Below are positions 5,693-22,034 of a stretch of 50,078 bases of DNA, one piece after another (position 1 is the first letter of the stretch; every line of letters starts with the position of its first letter). This DNA is from Lentimonas sp. (GTDB lineage Bacteria; Pseudomonadota; Alphaproteobacteria; Rickettsiales; UBA1997). The stretch lies in NCBI GenBank assembly GCA_047628655.1, contig JBLHVR010000003.1:1-50078 (forward strand), in the 5' to 3' direction. The position numbers were made by a program, and so were the translations under genes. Under the pieces are notes generated by a model. That model had not been told where the DNA came from and searched no databases. It saw nothing but the letters and a program-made list of their open reading frames with translations.

Positions 5693-6286
5693 ATGTTTAC
5701 AGGAATAATTACACATATTGCAAAAATTCAGGAATTAAATTCTAAACCAAATTCCGACTTAGAAATTGCCTTAGAAATTAATGACAAAATTGAGCGTAAA
5801 TTAGAAATTGGCTGTTCAATTTCCTGCAGCGGAGCTTGCTTAACTTTAACAAAAAAAGAAGAAAATTTACTATTTTTTGAAGCATCCAACGAAACCCTAA
5901 GTAAAACCACCATTAAAAATTGGAAAATAGGAAATGAAATCAACCTAGAATTTGCTTTAAGAATGGGAGATGAGCTTGGTGGACACATGGTTTCAGGACA
6001 TGTTGACAAAGTTGCTAAAATATTAAGCATTAAGCCAGCAAACCAAGATTCCACCATTTTTGATATTGAAATTCCTAAAGATTTAGTAAAATTCATCACC
6101 ACCAAAGGATCGATCGTTTTAAACGGAGTTTCCTTAACTATTAATCAAGTTTTTGACAATTCCTTTAATGTCAATATCATCAGCCACACTTTGCAAAACA
6201 CCAATTTTAGAAACTTGAAATTGGGCGATTATTTAAATCTAGAAATTGATTTGATCGCTAGATATTTGGAAAAATTAACAAAATAA
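5693..6286 (+). CDS. ribE: Riboflavin synthase (alpha subunit)
   Basis: MFTGII N-terminus, GACLT, LGGHMVSGHVD, KGSIVLNGVSLTIN, NLEIDLIARY. Confidence 0.95.
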   Translation: MFTGIITHIAKIQELNSKPNSDLEIALEINDKIERKLEIGCSISCSGACLTLTKKEENLLFFEASNETLSKTTIKNWKIGNEINLEFALRMGDELGGHMVSGHVDKVAKILSIKPANQDSTIFDIEIPKDLVKFITTKGSIVLNGVSLTINQVFDNSFNVNIISHTLQNTNFRNLKLGDYLNLEIDLIARYLEKLTK

Positions 6287-6288
6287 AA

Positions 6289-7353
6289 ATGCTCTCCTCC
6301 ATACCAGAAATAATATCCGACGCCAAAGCCGGTAAAATGTTCATTTTAGTTGATGATGAAAATCGTGAAAATGAAGGTGATTTAGTCATTCCAGCCAGCA
6401 TGTGCAATGACAAGGCTGTGAATTTTATGGCTAAATTTGGTCGCGGATTAATTTGCCTAACTCTTGATGAAAAGCGCGTTGCACAGCTTGAACTACCATT
6501 AATGTCGAACAACAATGAATCGCGTCATCGAACTGCTTTTACCGTTTCAATTGAAGCAAAAGAGGGTATTTCTACAGGAATTTCGGCTCAAGATCGCGCC
6601 AAAACTATTGAAGATGCCATTAATCCTCAAAATACCAAAAATGACATCGTTAGCCCAGGGCATATTTTCCCACTAAAAGCACAGAAAGGTGGTGTTTTAG
6701 TTCGCGCTGGCCACACGGAAGCATCTGTCGATATTGCCAGTCTTGCAGGTTTAAACCCATCAGGAGTAATTTGTGAAATAATGAATGACGATGGAACAAT
6801 GGCCAGAATGCCTGATTTGAAGAAATTTGCCAAAGAGCATGATTTAAAAATTGCCACCATTGCCGATTTAATCGAATATCGCCGCCTTCACGACAAATTG
6901 ATTGAGCGCAAAAATGAAACTGAAATTGACAGCAACATTGCAGGAAAATTTAAAGCCGTAATTTATCAAAGCAAAGTTGATAATGTTGAACATTTGGCTT
7001 TAATTAAGGGTGAAATTACCGATTCAGAAACTTTAGTTCGCATGCATCATTTGAATATTTTTGGTGATGTTTTGGATGATAAAAAGAATGACAAAACTGG
7101 AATTTTACAAAGCGCAATGAAAAAAATTGCTGATGAAAAAAATGGTGTAATCGTAATCATTCGCCAAACCAACAAACCCATCATCGATTTAATTAAAGGG
7201 AAAACTTCCAGCAAACTTCGTAACTATGGAATTGGCGCCCAAATTCTGCTAGATTTAGGCGTTAAAAATATGCGCCTTTTAACTAATTCAGAAAAATCAG
7301 TTATTGGCTTGGAAGGTTACGGGTTGAAGATTTGTGGTTACGAAAAATTGTAA
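6289..7353 (+). CDS. ribB: 3,4-dihydroxy-2-butanone-4-phosphate synthase with degenerate GTP cyclohydrolase II domain (RibBX-type)
   Basis: DDENRENEGDL, TAFTVSIEA, PGHIFPL, RAGHTEA, ICEIMNDDGTMAR. The C-terminal domain lacks the Zn-binding Cys residues. Confidence 0.93.
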   Translation: MLSSIPEIISDAKAGKMFILVDDENRENEGDLVIPASMCNDKAVNFMAKFGRGLICLTLDEKRVAQLELPLMSNNNESRHRTAFTVSIEAKEGISTGISAQDRAKTIEDAINPQNTKNDIVSPGHIFPLKAQKGGVLVRAGHTEASVDIASLAGLNPSGVICEIMNDDGTMARMPDLKKFAKEHDLKIATIADLIEYRRLHDKLIERKNETEIDSNIAGKFKAVIYQSKVDNVEHLALIKGEITDSETLVRMHHLNIFGDVLDDKKNDKTGILQSAMKKIADEKNGVIVIIRQTNKPIIDLIKGKTSSKLRNYGIGAQILLDLGVKNMRLLTNSEKSVIGLEGYGLKICGYEKL

Positions 7354-7373
7354 ATTCTCTATTAAATAAATGA

Positions 7374-8237
7374 ATGAATTTAGAACAAAACAAAACAAAT
7401 ACTTCCGCTTGGTTTAGAGAGCTTCGCAATAAAATTTGTGAGCAATTTGAAAAAATTGAAGCGCAATACGCCGCTTCTGACAATAAACCAAATGACCTAA
7501 AAATTGACCCGAGCGAAGCTAAATTTACACGAAAAAGTTGGAACAGGTCTGAGGGCGGTGGTGGAGAAATTTCGACAATGAAAGGTAATGTTTTTGAGAA
7601 AGTTGGTGTAAATATTTCTACCGTTTTTGGTGAATTTTCACCAGAATTTCGCAAACAAATTCCGGGCGCAGAAAGTGACCCAAAATTTTGGGCTACTGGA
7701 GTTTCCCTTGTGGCGCACATGCGCTCACCCTTGGTTCCTGCGGTGCATTTTAATACTCGTTTCATTTGCACAACTAAGCAATGGTTCGGTGGTGGTGGAG
7801 ATTTAAACCCAATGTTTGAAGTTGAAAATGACACTAAAGATTTTCATGGTGCCTTTAAAAATGCTTGCGACAAATATGACCCAAAATATTATCCAAAATT
7901 TAAAAAATGGTGCGATGAATATTTCTTCATCAAGCACAGAAATCAATCACGCGGAGTTGGTGGAATTTTTTACGATTATTTAGATTCTAATTTTGAAGAA
8001 AATTTTAATTTTACTAAAGATGTTGGCCTAGCCTTTCTAGATATTTTTCCAAAATTAGTTCAAAGAAATATGCTTCAAAAGTGGAATGAAGAACAAAGAG
8101 AACATCAATTAAGAAAGCGTGGACTTTACACCGAATTCAACTTGGTTTATGACCGCGGCACAAAATTTGGACTAATGACAGGAGGAAATACTGAGGCAAT
8201 TTTAATGTCTCTTCCGCCAGTTGCTAAGTGGGATTAA
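7374..8237 (+). CDS. hemF: Oxygen-dependent coproporphyrinogen III oxidase
   Basis: GGGG..G.VFEKVGVN, HFNTR, WFGGGGDL, RGVGGIFYD, EFNLVYDRGTKFGL, ILMSLPP. Confidence 0.96.
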   Translation: MNLEQNKTNTSAWFRELRNKICEQFEKIEAQYAASDNKPNDLKIDPSEAKFTRKSWNRSEGGGGEISTMKGNVFEKVGVNISTVFGEFSPEFRKQIPGAESDPKFWATGVSLVAHMRSPLVPAVHFNTRFICTTKQWFGGGGDLNPMFEVENDTKDFHGAFKNACDKYDPKYYPKFKKWCDEYFFIKHRNQSRGVGGIFYDYLDSNFEENFNFTKDVGLAFLDIFPKLVQRNMLQKWNEEQREHQLRKRGLYTEFNLVYDRGTKFGLMTGGNTEAILMSLPPVAKWD

Positions 8238-8252
8238 GAATAATCTAGAAAT

Positions 8253-8930
8253 ATGAAAAAAAAGCCTAGAACTGAATCGGAATTGATAGATTCATCAAAA
8301 GTTGAAAATATTCATGGTGAAATACGAGATAAAATAATTCAATTTGAAGATGTCCATTACGATTCAATTGAAGTTGGAATGAACGCTGGATTCGGAGAAC
8401 TTAATGATGAAAATGAAAACAAAGAATCTGTCCATTCTTATGGATTTAGAACTTGTCTTGCAGCAATAATAATCACTAAAGATCTGAAAAATATCTTACT
8501 TGGTCATTATGGTCCGAAAAAATTCCAAAATAGCAGGGATGATTTTATTGAAGAAACAAGAAGCACCATTAATGATATTTCTAAAGAGGTTGATATTAAA
8601 TTGGGATTCAGCTCCAGAGGTCTGCATGAATCTTTAATGGAAGAAATGGAAGGTTTTGAAAGTGAAGAGGGTTTATTAAGTCAAAATGATAGGGAAGATT
8701 TTATTAGAAAAACGAAAGAAGATGCAATGAGTGACATAGAATATCTAAAACAAAAGCTTAATGCGTCGGAAATTATTGATCTGCCACACGATTCCATTCT
8801 AATTAAAAGAAATGGAGAAATAATTATTAGAATTCCAGATGAGGATTTTAGGAAACCTGCACCACAAATTTGCAAACCACAAGCATCCAATGTAAAAACG
8901 ACAACAAATAATAAATCTTTAGAACAATGA
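8253..8930 (+). CDS. Hypothetical protein, candidate CheD/CNF1-like cysteine deamidase
   Basis: 225-aa ORF filling the hemF-purC gap and overlapping the purC start (ATGA). IEVGMN...SYGFRTC68...LLGH85 pattern. The coding call is firm; the function is inferred. Confidence 0.55.
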   Translation: MKKKPRTESELIDSSKVENIHGEIRDKIIQFEDVHYDSIEVGMNAGFGELNDENENKESVHSYGFRTCLAAIIITKDLKNILLGHYGPKKFQNSRDDFIEETRSTINDISKEVDIKLGFSSRGLHESLMEEMEGFESEEGLLSQNDREDFIRKTKEDAMSDIEYLKQKLNASEIIDLPHDSILIKRNGEIIIRIPDEDFRKPAPQICKPQASNVKTTTNNKSLEQ

Positions 8931-9643
8931 AAAATAAACTTTACGAAGGAAAAGCAAAAATTCTTTACACAACGGAAAATGAAAACGAGCTGATCCAATA
9001 TTTCAAGGACGATGCTACTGCTTTTAATAATGTTAAAAAAGACGTTATTGCCGAAAAGGGAATTTTAAATAATTTTATTTCGGAATTCTTAATGTTGAAA
9101 ATGGCAGAAGCTGGTATTCCAACTCACTTCCTTAAAAGACTAAATGAGCGTGAACAACTGGTTAAAAAGGCTAAAATTATTCCTTTAGAAATTATTATTC
9201 GAAACATCACCGCTGGATCAATGGCCAAAAGACTAGGTATTGATGAAGGAATTGTGCTTGATAAAACAATTTTTGAACTTTGCTTTAAAGATGATTCTCT
9301 TGGCGATCCTTTAATTAATGACAATCACGCCATCACAGTTCTAAAGGCTGTAAATGAAACACAATTAGATTTAATTAAAAAATACACTTTCAAAATTAAT
9401 CAAATTCTTCAAGATCTTTTCTCTCAAATTAATATTAGATTAGTCGATTTTAAAATTGAGTTTGGCTTTGACGAAAATGATCGTATTATTCTAGCTGACG
9501 AAATTAGCCCCGATTCTTGCAGACTTTGGGACAAAGACAATAATGAAAAAATGGATAAAGATCGCTTCCGCAGAGATTTAGGCGGACTTGCTGAAGCTTA
9601 CAAAGAAATTGCCAATCGTTTTGGAATAAAAATTAACAATTAA
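8927..9643 (+). CDS. purC: Phosphoribosylaminoimidazole-succinocarboxamide synthase
   Basis: LYEGKAK, FKDDATAFN, LVDFKIEFG, LADEISPDSCRLWD, DKDRFR. Confidence 0.97.
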   Translation: MKNKLYEGKAKILYTTENENELIQYFKDDATAFNNVKKDVIAEKGILNNFISEFLMLKMAEAGIPTHFLKRLNEREQLVKKAKIIPLEIIIRNITAGSMAKRLGIDEGIVLDKTIFELCFKDDSLGDPLINDNHAITVLKAVNETQLDLIKKYTFKINQILQDLFSQINIRLVDFKIEFGFDENDRIILADEISPDSCRLWDKDNNEKMDKDRFRRDLGGLAEAYKEIANRFGIKINN

Positions 9644-10875
9644 TGATTTCAAAAAACAAAGGGCAAATAGTTGCCTGCTTAGATATTGGAACCACCAAGC
9701 TAGTATGTTTAATTGCATCAATAAACAATAAAGGAATTACTCTCTTAGGTTACGGCTACCGTGAATCTAGGGGAATTGTTTCGAGCGCCATTTCCGACAT
9801 GAAACTGGCGCAAAAAGCAATTACCAATGTTATTTGCGATGCCGAAAGAATGGCAGGCATAAACATTGACGAGCTAATTATTGGTCTTTCTGGCGCAGAA
9901 ACTATTGCACAGCAAAAAGTTGGAAAAATTAAAATTGCCGGTGACATGGTTAAAAGTTCCGACATCTCTAATCTGGCTCATCAAATTCGCTTAGCTTACA
10001 TAAAAGCAAATCGTGAAATAGTTCATCTCATGCCTTTGCAATATCGCATCGATGATTCCAGTCCAGTTCAAAACCCTCGCTACATGAGTGGAAAATTTCT
10101 TTCCGCCAAATTCAACATTGTTTCTGGATCACTTGGCACCGTTAAAAATATTGAAAATTGCCTAAAAAGATGTCATCTTTCGGTTTACAACTACATCTGT
10201 GAGTCCTATTCCTCGGCGCTTTGTGCCTTAAGTAAAAACGAATTAAGTTTAGGAACAGTTCTAATTGACATTGGCGGAAAAGATGCCTCGTTTTGCGTTC
10301 TAATGGATGGAAAATTGGTTTACACTGGAAATTTTGGCGCTGGCGGATTGCACATCACCAAAGATATTGCCTCAATTTTAAATATTAATTTTGATACCGC
10401 CGAAACCATCAAAAACCTTAATAATTCTCTAATAATTAGTCGGATTCAAGAAAGAGAGAACATTAATTTAACCAGTGAAGATTTTGACATTTTCGACTCC
10501 AAAAGAATCACCAAAGGAATGTTGCGCGACATCATTAAATCTCGTGTTGAAGAAATATTAGAATCGGTAAAAAAGAAATTGGAAAAGAATGGTTACGGAG
10601 CCGCCGTAATTAGTAATGTGGTTTTATCTGGCGGTAGCGCCAACATTATTGGCATTGACAAATTGGCCAATAAAATCTTCTCAAAACCAGTTAGAATTGG
10701 CTATCCGGCAGGAATAAATAATATTCCTGAAGTGTTTAATGACCCTTCCTTCTGCAGCGCTTTTGGAATGTTGATTTTTCTAAAAAATGTTTATTCTAAA
10801 GATAAAGTTAAAAATAGTTTTGAAACTAAAAATGGTTTTTTTGGTAAAATTATTGACAAATTAATGGCAATTTAA
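9643..10875 (+). CDS. ftsA: Cell division protein FtsA
   Basis: LDIGTTK, VLIDIGG, GGLHITKDIA, VVLSGG, VRIGYP actin-fold motifs. Confidence 0.92.
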   Translation: MISKNKGQIVACLDIGTTKLVCLIASINNKGITLLGYGYRESRGIVSSAISDMKLAQKAITNVICDAERMAGINIDELIIGLSGAETIAQQKVGKIKIAGDMVKSSDISNLAHQIRLAYIKANREIVHLMPLQYRIDDSSPVQNPRYMSGKFLSAKFNIVSGSLGTVKNIENCLKRCHLSVYNYICESYSSALCALSKNELSLGTVLIDIGGKDASFCVLMDGKLVYTGNFGAGGLHITKDIASILNINFDTAETIKNLNNSLIISRIQERENINLTSEDFDIFDSKRITKGMLRDIIKSRVEEILESVKKKLEKNGYGAAVISNVVLSGGSANIIGIDKLANKIFSKPVRIGYPAGINNIPEVFNDPSFCSAFGMLIFLKNVYSKDKVKNSFETKNGFFGKIIDKLMAI

Positions 10876-18265: not shown

Positions 18266-21200
18266 TCAATATTTTCCTATTGTTGCTCCAACTTTCTGCC
18301 CAATACCAGCATCCGGTTTTAAAGATGATTTTGGGCAATCCGGAAAATCAAGACCGCTGGAGAACCTTAAAAATCTTAAATTTAGTTTCTTATTTTTTCT
18401 AGATTTCTTCCAAGTCTCCGTAGCAATTTTTTCAGCATTAAATTGACCCCGACCCTCCTCTGGAATTTTTACTATCCAATGATTTACAATCTGTTAAGAA
18501 ATCATCTTTTTTGTATTCAGACAAAGTTTTCATTTTCTGAACGGTGAAGCGATTCTGCAATGGTAAGTCTATTATTTTCCTGTCTTTTGTGCCAATTGAA
18601 TTAATTGATGAAATCATCATGAAACCCGGTTTGACTTGGGCGCTGATTTTGTAACATACAAGGGAGTTCGCATCTGTATTGGCATCTTGGTTTACTATTT
18701 TAGCATTTGTACTTTTTAAAAAAGAACCAATCATTTCACTTTTTCCAATTCCAGAACTGCCTTCGAAAAAAATTCCATTCAATACAGCCGCTGGTAAAAC
18801 TGCCCGCTTCTTTGTTTTTGACGAATTTTAAAACAACTTTCTAGTTTTTTTCCGCTTCTTTGGTGGCAGAAGTTGAGATAAAATTATCACTTTCGAGGTG
18901 TAATTTTTTCTCTTTGGATGTTTGAGAAAATGAATATTTCAAAGCTTTTTCCTGCAATTTTTTAATTGTTAATTTTGGAGATTTTTGCAGATTTTGACGA
19001 TGTTTTGCATTGGTTTTATAATAATAATCGATTAACTCACGATACTTTTCTGCACCTTCCGACCCTTCAATAAAAACCTTTAGAACATTTTCATAAATGT
19101 AGGAAGCGGGCAAGTCCTTCAAATTCAGCTCTGCAATTTGATCGCCAGAGAAAAATGCGCTATTTGATGTTTTAGCATCGAATTGTTTAGATGAAATAAA
19201 GAATACTTTATGATCTTTACTTAATTCATAAAATTTACCCTGATAAAAACCCCTACCATTACCTCATTCGTTAAGCGGTGAAAAGAAGGTGTAATTACAA
19301 TCTTCAAGCCCGTCAATCTCGAGTATTTTAGTAATTCCTTTTCGATCATCCAAAGCCCAAGATTCAAAATTATGCATCTCAGGAGTTATTTCTACACTAC
19401 CCCTATTTCTTCCTCAAATATTTTCATTAACTGACTTTTACCCACCCCAACCTCACCATTAAGAGCCGCTACTTGATTGGTTTTTAATATTTAATGCTGC
19501 CTTCCTTTTTTGAATAAAATCCTGTGCTTCTTTTGAGCGATTGCCATCTAAACCTATTTTGGGATCAGGCTCCTCAACTAAAGTAGTCTGTTTTTCCTCC
19601 TGCTTTTCTTCATTCTTAAAAGTGAAAGCAGACTCAGGAAGCCAAGACAAATCTTTTCGATCTTCGGTATGCAATTATTAATGTTAAATCTCGTTTTAAA
19701 TTGATGTATTTATCTGAAAAAACAACTGAAGAAAGAAAAGATAGAAAACCATTTTTTGCAATATCAACATCATCAAACTGATTAATTTCCTTACCACTTA
19801 AAAAAGGCTCTAAAATCTGCAATAACTCAGGATCAAACCTTCCTTTAAGAATTATTTTTTTACCTTGCTTGAGAGCTGTGATTAAATCACTTCTAGTTTT
19901 TTCGAAATTATTAAAGCCACCTTCAAAAGTTTCAAAAGTGGCTCCAACAGTTAAATCTTCAGAGGTAACGTCTTCCAGATCAATTACGACATAATTATCT
20001 CCCAACCCTCTAATGGTTTGGCCAGCATCGTTACTAACAATAATTGTTGGGATGTTTTCTAATGATTTCGAAGTCGATTCTGGAGGAATAAAATTTAACT
20101 TATTATGCTTAACTTTTTCAGGCAAAGGAATGTTTGGTGCCAAATAAATCTCAAGCTGTACATTGTGAATTTGCGCCTTATTTAGCAAAATATACCACTG
20201 ATTATCAGAAAGTTTGGAAGTAATAAAAAGAGGTAATGTTTTATCTTTATTATTTTCAATCAAACCATTCGTTTCCTAATAAAATACTTTGCTAGTTTTA
20301 TCACCATAAAGCAGCAAATCAGAAATTTGCGTATTAACCAAATGCACGTCTTTGGTAATTTGATCAAAAGTTATATTTTGGGCAATTTTGGTTTCGTCAA
20401 ATTTAGAAAAGTCAAATTCTGCGCCAGAGCAATCAATGGTTAAGTTCTCTGGTATTTTGATGTCATAATTTTGATAGGTTATTTTTCCTGAAGCTATGGT
20501 TTTTCTAAAAGCATATTGCAAATCAACAGTATCTTCTTTGGAAATATTGGTAATTTGGAAATTGGTTTTTCCACCTTCTAAATCTTTTGCAAATTGGCTT
20601 TTTTTCAAACCATCCGACCATTATCCATCGAAACAATTCCGAAAAGATGCTGCTGCCAATTAGAGAATCCTTGCAGATCGACAATTATTTTTTCTTCGTT
20701 ATTGGCAATGGGGTTTTTCGCAAAAGAGATTCTCCTTGAAATTTTACCTTGTGCCTATTTGTAAAAGAAGGATCGGTAGAAACTTCTTCACAAAGACTAA
20801 CAACTCTGGTTTCTGGAGTAAGTTTTATGCCGTTAATTTCTCCTTCAGGATCTAATAAGGCGTTTAGAGATGACGCTTCGTTGTTATCAAAAACACCCCG
20901 ATCAACAACAAGTAATTTTGGATTTTCCGTATTTTGATGGAGTAAATTATATTCTAGAAAAGCCTTAAGAGGGTTTGTTTTTTGCACGAATTATGCCAAA
21001 CCATTTTTTTTGATCAAAATATCGTTAGCGGTAAAATCTACCTGATCTGGAGAATCGATGTAAAAAACAGATAAAGACTTCTTTTGGGAATCTTCTAAAA
21101 TCTTCATGGCATAGTCTTGAGCATTCTTTACAACAATTAAGGATGATTTATTTGGCAATAATTTCTCCAATAAATCATCTGTATTAGTAATGGCAATAGG

Positions 21201-22034
21201 ATTTGGGTGAATGTTACATTTCTCTACAAAACCCAACTGTTGCTCTTCTGGCAACATTTCCACATATTCCTTCATGTCACTAGAATCAGCAATTTCTTTT
21301 AGATGTTCAGTTAAGAAAATAAATATTTGTTTCGATTCTAAAGTCCTGACAAAATCCATAAAACAGCCACTATTTTTAATTTATTCCATATTTTCATTAA
21401 GAAATTTTAGCCTATCTTCTGGCATTAGATCTGATATGTGAGGTAAAGAATTCTGAGGGTCCTGCTTAAAAATAGATTTCAACTTCGCCCACACTTTATC
21501 AACTTCTTGAGGCATAAATTTTCTTAATGAGGGCAGAGATTTGAATAAATATCGCTCTTCATCAGTAACCCACTCTTCTAAAGATTTCCTCACCAATAAT
21601 TCAAAGCCATCAGCAACAAAACTATTTTCACCGTCAACATCTATGGCATATCGATTTTTCCTGAAGAATGCTTTTATTTGCATTATTTTTTCAAAGTCCA
21701 AAAATATGGAAGAATCTATCCCCATCCCAAAATTGGAAAGCGTTTCATAATCATCATCTGGATTAAATTTTGCCAAATTATTTATCGATTCAGAATTATT
21801 CAAATTATCATCCAATTTCTCAAACTCCTTATCCGATTTCTTCAAATAAATTTGAAAACCATCCAATTACAACCTTTTTAAAAGAGTAATTCTAGAGCCG
21901 TGGCTAACTGAATCGTTAGAAGATGATTTGTCGAGAGTAATGGTTTTTGGATTAGGATCTAAAGATGGGCTGGTTGAACTTTTAAAGCCCTGACTAGGGT
22001 TTTTCGACGCAGAAATTGGGATCAAACCTTCCAT
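18266..22034 (-). pseudogene. Shattered large multi-AAA+ ATPase gene (midasin/dynein-related AAA_5-like)
   Basis: Collinear minus-strand fragments joined by in-frame TAA stops (21381, 20991) and frameshifts (~20688, ~20605, ~19460). Walker A GEVGVGKS (19434-19457) and GSSGIGKS (18738-18761); LLVVD...LNALLD...DPSFTNRH module at 20685-20987. Probable ATG at 22034 and final TGA at 18266. Confidence 0.75.

Follow-up and report, generated by a model that had tools for sequence, protein, structure and literature searches.

What kind of protein is encoded by a gene that matches no described family and lies within a string of housekeeping genes that most of the closest relatives of its host keep without it? 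The question is raised by a stretch of DNA of 50,078 nucleotides (nt) from an assembly labelled Lentimonas sp. (GCA_047628655.1, contig JBLHVR010000003.1; GTDB lineage Alphaproteobacteria, Rickettsiales, UBA1997), hereafter the window, in which an open reading frame (ORF) of 225 amino acids (aa) plus a stop codon occupies positions 8253 to 8930 of the + strand, between hemF and purC. The original prediction, made from the letters of the sequence, took the product to be an orphan CheD/CNF1-like deamidase and a possible secreted effector. By its modelled fold, the protein is a relative of CheD, NTAN1 and CNF1; the kind of enzyme is known, and the sequence family is new. The evidence taken as a whole leans towards a deamidase of the NTAN1/CheD kind, which might act in another cell.

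Predicted fold and closest solved structures

The AlphaFold2 model of the window protein, built on a 9-sequence alignment, has a predicted local distance difference test score (pLDDT) of 82.0 and a predicted template modelling score of 0.77. Its core consists of beta strands in residues 24-86 and 113-119, helices 121-139 and 144-168, and strands in residues 173-185, and the secondary structure and pLDDT together delineate a predicted catalytic domain, an alpha-beta-beta sandwich of residues ~24-200 (8322 to 8852, + strand). The structural matches described below cover residues 28-204 of the model when it is compared with NTAN1 and residues 35-199 when it is compared with CheD. The two helices form a hairpin (residues 121-168; 8613 to 8756, + strand; assigned by DSSP on the model, with pLDDT 73-83 for residues 131-150) that follows the strand with G118-F119 at its end, precedes the 'IDLP' strand and is the part of the domain with the most gaps and length variation in the alignments.

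In a Foldseek search of the Protein Data Bank (PDB), ranks 1 to 19 all belong to one superfamily, represented by NTAN1, CheD (E 4.1e-3) and YfiH/DUF152, with CNF1 and CNFy lower. The same superfamily emerges from VIA-align, a comparison with 48,161 representative chains that is independent of Foldseek. Exactly 8 chains reach Z >= 5, all of them belonging to the CNF1/YfiH-like superfamily of cysteine hydrolases: NTAN1 (Z 9.0, root mean square deviation (rmsd) 4.0, 137 residues aligned), CheD (Z 8.9, rmsd 3.6, 130 of 154 residues aligned), BLF1 (6.7), YlmD (6.0), CNFy (5.9 and 5.6), CNF1 (5.6) and YfiH (5.4); the first chain from outside the superfamily is a designed protein at Z 4.7. When the Foldseek list was re-scored, the top 25 entries (Z 9.2-4.9) were again all from the superfamily, after which the scores drop to 3.8. 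A replicate model, that of the homolog P0006 (27% identical in the alignment; pLDDT 81.5), aligns with NTAN1 at Z 9.9 (146 residues) and with CheD at Z 9.2 (138 of 154 residues), followed by BLF1, YlmD, CNFy, CNF1, CNFy and YfiH at Z 6.3-5.3, that is, by the same top 8 as the window model. Consistent leads, to be taken as leads only, come from the ESM Atlas. Its closest clusters that bear a name are labelled as a bacterial 'N-terminal asparagine amidohydrolase domain' (0.87), as AvrXv3 type III effector (0.85) and in part as CheD (0.80), and structural comparison retrieves clusters of 'type III secretion system effector' (TM 0.54), arthropod NTAN1 (0.52) and CheD (0.49).

The fold anticipated by the original prediction, one of the CheD/CNF1 kind, is thus borne out by the structure searches of two models (the window protein and P0006). 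The kinship that it drew holds at the level of the superfamily and shifts within it: the closest solved structures are those of human NTAN1 and CheD, not those of CNF1 or BLF1.

The predicted catalytic triad

The predicted catalytic segment, S62-C68-H85 (8436 to 8507, + strand), was delineated from the alignments and reads S-Y-G-F-x-T/S-C, a beta-hairpin, and L-x-H. The strings on which the original prediction was built (IEVGMN, SYGFRTC-LAAIIIT...LLGH and the tail RKPAPQICKPQASNVKTTTNNKSLEQ) are all present in the ORF, and the spacing of 17 residues between Cys and His can be read directly from the DNA, where TCT encodes Ser62 (8436-8438), TGT encodes Cys68 (8454-8456) and CAT encodes His85 (8505-8507). 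The triads given in part of the NTAN1 structure paper (PMC7022378) are Cys75/His92/Ser69 for NTAN1 and Cys27/His44/Thr21 for CheD, both with offsets of -6/0/+17, and the offsets of Ser62/Cys68/His85 match both exactly. In NTAN1, as stated in the same part of that paper, the C75A and H92A replacements abolish activity and S69A lowers it about five-fold (PMC7022378).

A Cys and a His 17 residues apart are by themselves trivial by chance; here the pair is more than chance because it is conserved in the aligned rows and is accompanied by the fold match. When the family was compared by hhalign with a CheD profile, for which seven genes were taken from the bacterial class to which the window's genome belongs, a single, statistically not significant alignment of 28 ungapped columns was obtained, and it places S62, C68 and H85 on the Thr, Cys and His of CheD. 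It is very probable, on the strength of the models, that the window protein has a CheD/NTAN1-type fold with a Ser-Cys-His triad; the predicted catalytic unit is this triad, and the modelled fold is NTAN1/CheD-like rather than CNF1-like.

A small family absent from domain databases

No family of Pfam or NCBIfam was found in the window protein, nor any of PADLOC in 5 members of the family. The search of PHROGs yielded no significant match, the two sub-threshold matches being to proteins of unknown function over stretches of 25-50 residues (the best, E 0.0026 on 25 residues, is at chance level). Because none of these four resources gives a significant match, the current annotation would be 'hypothetical'; the possibility of a phage or defence gene was rejected on the PADLOC and PHROGs results. 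Sequence searches of the PDB with the protein, two profiles and the homolog P0008 returned chance-level matches only (ETV6 fusions, Spc24, a fibronectin-binding protein).

Relatives nonetheless exist. When 1.84 billion cluster representatives were scanned in full with HMMER, 8 proteins reached E <= 0.001. One is the query and five have 204-283 aa, with E 4.6e-16 to 6.3e-4 and 30-36% identity; the other two, both long, were set aside, their matches lying in repeated stretches. A word-indexed search added two further relatives of 226 aa with 57% identity, and a profile search found a 202-aa hypothetical protein at NCBI, from a 'Rickettsiales bacterium' metagenome-assembled genome, that is identical to the ORF of the congeneric genome G006 discussed below. 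Two members, P0005 and P0012, are encoded on contigs of 66 kb and 167 kb, respectively. Locus searches with an alignment of the distant subgroup gave no match in genome contigs or metagenome contigs, and those with an alignment of the close subgroup gave none in metagenome contigs. Longer fused forms of the family were not found, which is weak evidence. Hence 'orphan' is apt insofar as no database family takes in the protein and has to be given up insofar as a small family exists (8 library proteins including the query, and 5 of the 126 genomes of the bacterial family). A literature search covering the main texts on CheD-like effectors, Rickettsiales type IV deamidases and N-terminal amidases found no description of the family.

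The invariant positions of the 9-sequence alignment are M1, S62, G64, F65, C68, A70, L83, H85, G118, D176 and G188. With three more genomic relatives added to give 12 rows, Cys68 is retained in 12/12, Ser or Thr at -6 in 12/12 (Thr in two rows) and His85 in 11/12, the remaining row being the N-terminal part of a split gene, which stops short of the His, so that the two residues singled out by the original prediction are conserved in its homologs. D176 is Asn in one of the 12 rows. Cys and His are 17 residues apart in most rows; the distance shortens to 16 in G508 and to 15 in G006.

Comparison with characterised enzymes

Human NTAN1 (PDB 6A0E/F/H/I; PF14736) is the best structural match (Z 9.0-9.2 with the window model, 9.9 with that of P0006) and shares the Ser/Cys/His triad at identical -6/0/+17 spacing. 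The differences are considerable: identity in the structural alignments is ~10-13%, NTAN1 has 305-310 aa against 225, and the window protein has its own 48-residue helical hairpin and disordered tails. In NTAN1 an additional C-terminal region forms a cap over the active site and is where the free N-terminal amine binds (Glu260, Thr255, Ser254); the window model aligns to NTAN1 residues 40-202 and the range of the P0006 model runs to 306, figures that give ranges only. The window protein is bacterial and accessory, whereas NTAN1 is a conserved eukaryotic housekeeping enzyme. PF14736 does not match the window protein, and in other members its sub-threshold matches fall on different parts of the profile (residues 97-166 of P0008 on profile positions 26-94, residues 51-117 of P0002 on 182-248); on these grounds an NTAN1 orthologue was rejected. 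NTAN1 itself is described in the available part of its structure paper as lacking sequence similarity to known proteins (PMC7022378).

CheD of Thermotoga maritima (PDB 2F9Z; PF03975) matches at Z 8.9, 8.1 and 9.2 over 130-138 of its 154 residues, has the same triad spacing and carries at -6 a Thr, as do two members of the family. By eye, and unscored, 'K-h-G-F/FGG' and 'DLP/DLGG' blocks seem to follow in the same order in both. The window protein is ~70 residues longer, with its tails and the helical hairpin. A chemotaxis CheD was rejected: PF03975 has no match at E <= 10 in the 9 members, and in the window's genome, which is 88% complete with 4.5% contamination, neither CheD (PF03975; controls positive) nor the MCPsignal domain of chemotaxis receptors was found (the control search for the latter being positive in 8 of 14 genomes). 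The absence of a receptor substrate from the genome searches thus argues that the protein is not a chemotaxis CheD. ClpS and Bpt/ATE_C were likewise not found in this genome, on which ground a role in a bacterial N-degron pathway was rejected.

BLF1 (Z 6.3-6.7) and CNF1/CNFy (Z 5.5-5.9) have the superfamily fold and the Cys-His pair and act on proteins of another organism, but are clearly more distant than NTAN1 and CheD, and the window protein, unlike CNF1-type toxins, has no receptor-binding or translocation domains. The Cys-His spacing of CNF1 also differs from the 17 residues seen here, being 15, the figure that the original prediction gave. In the part of PMC7022378 concerned with the superfamily, CNF1 is said to have a backbone carbonyl in place of Ser/Thr, deamidase is the term used for CheD, NTAN1, BLF1 and CNF1 and polyphenol oxidase that used for YfiH, and a zinc ion is placed at the YfiH active site. 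YlmD and YfiH/PgeF share the fold at Z 6.0-4.9, ~3 Z units below NTAN1 and CheD, and the DUF152/YfiH families of Pfam match none of the 9 members at E <= 10.

A precedent in concept is offered by the HopAF1/AvrXv3 family, type III effectors that are predicted deamidases, in which HopAF1 has a deamidase-like region that needs Cys and His. HopAF1 has reportedly been modelled on CheD. It differs from the present family in its type III secretion, its plant hosts and its N-terminal acylation signals, and PF28166 gave no match in the Pfam scans of the family. The review that covers this effector states, in the part available, that both the Cys and the His of the region are required for immune suppression (PMC8150971). 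In the accessible part of a 2026 preprint (PMC13733733), 'a CheD-like deamidase' is named once among putative toxins near reb (R-body) clusters, and in the Legionella effector atlas (PMC11696984) deamidases appear only in the reference list.

Distribution and evolution

The gene is accessory and fast-evolving. In 5/5 of the congeners G001-G005 the string ribBA-hemF-purC-ftsA is kept with no ORF between hemF and purC, which are separated by 12-45 nt or overlap, so that among six congeners the slot is filled in G006 only. Between the window's genome and G006, hemF is 82.9% and purC 85.5% identical, against 30% over 183 aligned residues for the inserted protein. The family profile matches in 5 of 126 genomes of the bacterial family (3 of the 75 of high quality) and, in an order-level sample, in 3 of 400 genomes, one of these matches (G141, E 7.4e-5, a 298-aa ORF with no Cys/His motif) having been judged spurious by eye. 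A second weak match in G006 (contig C91, E 0.0096) lies inside a frame of 1132 aa.

The relatives in G020, G473 and G508 occur in unrelated genomic contexts. In G020 (L021:1369-2201) the gene is flanked by a small ORF on one side and uvrC-like genes on the other, and it is broken up into two ORFs, of 139 and 149 aa, that overlap; the split falls just before the catalytic His codon, and the gene is either a pseudogene or the product of an assembly error. The G473 relative (L028:31-1041, at a contig start) encodes 336 aa, with a long Pro-rich tail, whereas the distant G508 relative encodes 285 aa between carB-like and holB-like ORFs (names read from translations) and has Thr/Cys/His at -6/0/+16. 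The C-terminal extension of the G473 protein comprises ~130 residues with repeated PPLP/PPF, which in their sequence resemble ligands of eukaryotic-type proline recognition. Elsewhere, G003 has a different ORF of 279 aa (L006:2256-3095) between purC and ftsA, which suggests that insertions into the hemF-purC-ftsA string can occur at more than one of its junctions.

The arrangement in the window is not peculiar to one assembly. The stretch is present in four public sequencing runs labelled 'ice metagenome', none of the runs that hold it being listed as an RNA run, and in three of these four, those besides the possible source, the gene and both of its junctions are covered in pieces by contigs with zero differences, apart from one junction contig of run X3 that has one difference. 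In 3 of 4 runs (X1, X2 and X4) a co-occurring relative, which is more abundant and has 32 differences in 238 nt of hemF, is represented by a contig that joins position 8237 to position 8927 with 36 other letters between them; the gene is thus missing from this relative, precisely between these borders.

Gene neighbourhood

The upstream neighbour, hemF (coproporphyrinogen III oxidase; 7374 to 8237, + strand; PF01218, E 1.7e-94), is separated from the 225-aa ORF by 15 nt, and the downstream neighbour, purC (SAICAR synthetase; 8927 to 9643, + strand; PF01259, E 3.2e-85), overlaps it, its ATG and the TGA of the ORF sharing the letters ATGA at 8927-8930. These Pfam matches agree with the placement given in the original prediction. 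With ftsA following purC, the string reads ribE-ribBA-hemF-X-purC-ftsA, where X is the ORF. Genes are densely packed on one strand from 5693 to 10875, and no terminator-like site was found on the + strand between 5500 and 11200. The gene's GC fraction (0.30-0.32) is among the lower values of the neighbourhood, without being an outlier. The ORF is a real, expressed-looking gene and is probably co-transcribed with hemF and purC. Among the 41 large ORFs of the window and three flanking genes that were scanned, no chemotaxis or type IV secretion families were found, in keeping with the earlier observation that chemotaxis genes are absent from its surroundings.

Three other features of the window may be recorded here. 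Near its start, a truncated rve integrase core of 147 aa (344-787, - strand) adjoins a tRNA-Gln gene (1406-1480, - strand), which suggests the remnant of an integrated element. A phytochelatin synthase-like protein (1566-2348, - strand; PF05023, E 1.4e-34) is encoded in what is a small genome. Farther on, eight consecutive same-strand ORFs of 71-209 aa in shifting frames (18438-21866, - strand), of which three were scanned and gave no Pfam match, may be one large gene in pieces.

Termini and type IV secretion

The two ends of the protein are predicted to be disordered. Residues 1-16 (8253 to 8300, + strand) are rich in Lys, Arg, Glu and Ser, with pLDDT <50 for residues 1-4 and 6-16. The 225-aa protein has no signal peptide (mean hydropathy of the first 19 residues -1.47, best 19-residue window <=1.13), and a Sec-exported or membrane protein was ruled out, there being no hydrophobic N-terminus or membrane segment. 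The N-termini of the window protein, of P0002, P0004, P0005 and P0008 and of the L021 ORF begin with M-x-K-K/R and have further basic clusters (K-R-S-K-R-K-V in P0008) set in acidic stretches; in several members these clusters look, by resemblance of sequence, like nuclear localisation signals.

The Pro/Lys/Thr-rich disordered tail that the original prediction described is present: residues 206-225 (8868 to 8927, + strand), rich in Pro, Lys, Thr, Gln and Asn, have pLDDT <50. Ser, Thr, Pro, Gln, Asn and Lys make up 0.60 of the last 30 residues compared with 0.34 of the whole protein, and 0.47-0.60 (whole protein 0.31-0.43) in 9 other intact rows of the core family, in which the same 30-residue end carries a net charge between -1 and +2. 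For the protein of G508, a distant member, the corresponding figures are 0.37 and +3.

A route out of the cell may be provided by a type IV secretion system (T4SS). The window's genome encodes a VirB4 of 795 aa followed by a VirB6-like protein of 1009 aa, a second, lone VirB4 of 802 aa, and VirD4 genes at two contig ends (C34:12767-14608 and C100:1-1701), which may be true paralogs or may stem from two strains in the bin. These genes are set among housekeeping genes, the neighbours of VirD4 being hisF in one case and dciA and tpiA in the other. Of the 126 genomes in the bacterial family, 125 carry VirB4, among them all 75 of high quality, mostly in two copies. The Rickettsiales vir homolog (rvh) system is marked by a duplicated VirB4 and by scattered islets, and the closest purC relatives in named records (69-72% identity) come from an 'uncultured Rickettsiales bacterium'. 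Judged by its gene sequences, an rvh-like T4SS is present in the genome and is core to the lineage.

Proposed function and alternative explanations

By homology to the enzymes compared above, a protein Gln/Asn deamidase activity is predicted with slightly more confidence than doubt. His85, oriented by Ser62, would deprotonate Cys68; the thiolate would attack the carboxamide of a Gln or Asn side chain in a protein or peptide, giving ammonia and a thioester intermediate, from which water would release Glu or Asp. The target would be a protein of another cell, a host or prey, reached through the core rvh-like T4SS of the lineage. The protein is accordingly put forward as a tentative candidate for a translocated effector, which might be exported by the rvh system through a C-terminal signal. 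A more specific and rather unlikely proposal would make it the founding member of type IV-translocated NTAN1-like amidases of environmental Rickettsiales, in which a protein of a eukaryotic host would be deamidated at internal Gln/Asn, or at a new N-terminus, so that the Arg/N-degron pathway of the host is rewired.

Several observations weigh against a deamidase acting in another cell. On the side of the fold, Foldseek returns no PDB match at E <= 0.001, the best being NTAN1 with E 1.4e-3, TM 0.37 and rmsd 6.8; two unrelated chains reach Z 5.3 and 5.2 with the P0006 model; the hhalign alignment to the CheD profile is not significant (Prob 0.6, E 0.097); the PF14736 matches in three of nine members are sub-threshold (best 16.3 bits, cut-off 24); and no superfamily member appeared in the PDB sequence searches. 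The structure-comparison tool also warns that a best Z of 7-8 is typical of models without a true match, and because such scores are common where no relative exists, the case for the fold rests on the exclusivity and reproducibility of the top rows together with the triad. On the side of translocation, the gene sits inside a housekeeping operon with its stop overlapping the start of purC, no partner gene is seen, and the C-terminal tails of the family have no common motif or consistent charge. As to lifestyle, the runs holding the lineage carry the ice metagenome label and the window encodes broad biosynthesis; the search for the ATP/ADP translocase (PF03219) was negative and says nothing, because its control was positive nowhere.

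One alternative is a non-secreted deamidase, in which the chemistry of CheD has been re-targeted to a cytoplasmic protein of the bacterium itself. The tight packing of the ribE-ribBA-hemF-X-purC-ftsA string, in which no terminator-like site intervenes on the + strand, the lack of a secretion signal of a recognised kind in the window protein, and the cytoplasmic regulatory role of CheD, which is among the two best structural matches, are all in agreement with such an enzyme. A conserved self-substrate, however, would be expected to steady both sequence and distribution, and this makes an own-cell target unlikely: the gene is present in so few genomes of the family (5/126) and missing from the locus in 5/6 congeners, the product has diverged to 30% identity between flanks that retain 83-86%, and its relatives lie in unrelated contexts. 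An N-terminal amidase of the NTAN1 type, converting N-terminal Asn (or Gln) to Asp (or Glu) and feeding the N-degron pathway of a host or of the bacterium, draws on the top rank of human NTAN1 in both models (Z 9.0 and 9.9), on Ser as the third triad residue, as in NTAN1, on the weak PF14736 matches in 3/9 members and on the amidohydrolase label of the nearest named Atlas cluster (0.87). It is nevertheless quite improbable, given that NTAN1 and CheD are tied within 1 Z unit, that the PF14736 matches are inconsistent as well as below the cut-off, and that a bacterial N-degron pathway would be without a reader, no ClpS or Bpt having been found in the 88%-complete genome.

The remaining two alternatives depart further from the deamidation of a foreign protein. 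A YfiH/PgeF/YlmD-like small-molecule enzyme, which would edit peptidoglycan precursors or act on purine nucleosides, perhaps in connection with purC, could account for the YlmD and YfiH/PgeF matches (Z 6.0-4.9) and for the adjacency to a purine biosynthesis gene. These matches are, however, ~3 Z units weaker than those to NTAN1 and CheD, no DUF152/YfiH match was found in the 9 members, and the purC adjacency is not conserved, because congeners exist without the gene. The zinc site of YfiH uses further His residues, whereas the family has one invariant His only, and such an enzyme is considered very unlikely. The same Cys-His machinery could also lead to another outcome on a target protein, namely transglutamination, acyl transfer or proteolysis. 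Evidence from the fold and the triad would be the same as for deamidation, and an amine could in principle take the place of water in resolving a thioester intermediate; some CNF-family toxins transglutaminate. Against this stand the descriptions of the superfamily cited above, in which CheD, NTAN1, BLF1 and CNF1 are deamidases and YfiH a polyphenol oxidase, and any such outcome seems most improbable.

Implications

If the more specific proposal of a type IV-translocated NTAN1-like amidase is correct, the window protein would be the first deamidase effector of the order Rickettsiales and, at the same time, a bacterial relative of NTAN1, an enzyme described as similar in sequence to no known protein. 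If it is active, the protein deamidase superfamily would extend to uncultured, T4SS-bearing bacteria labelled Rickettsiales that have no chemotaxis system. The protein would also offer a testable effector candidate for these organisms. Should it prove to be cytoplasmic, a CheD-like deamidase with a substrate outside chemotaxis would also be informative. Finally, its place between NTAN1 and CheD in structure space may help to trace the origin of the eukaryotic N-terminal amidase.

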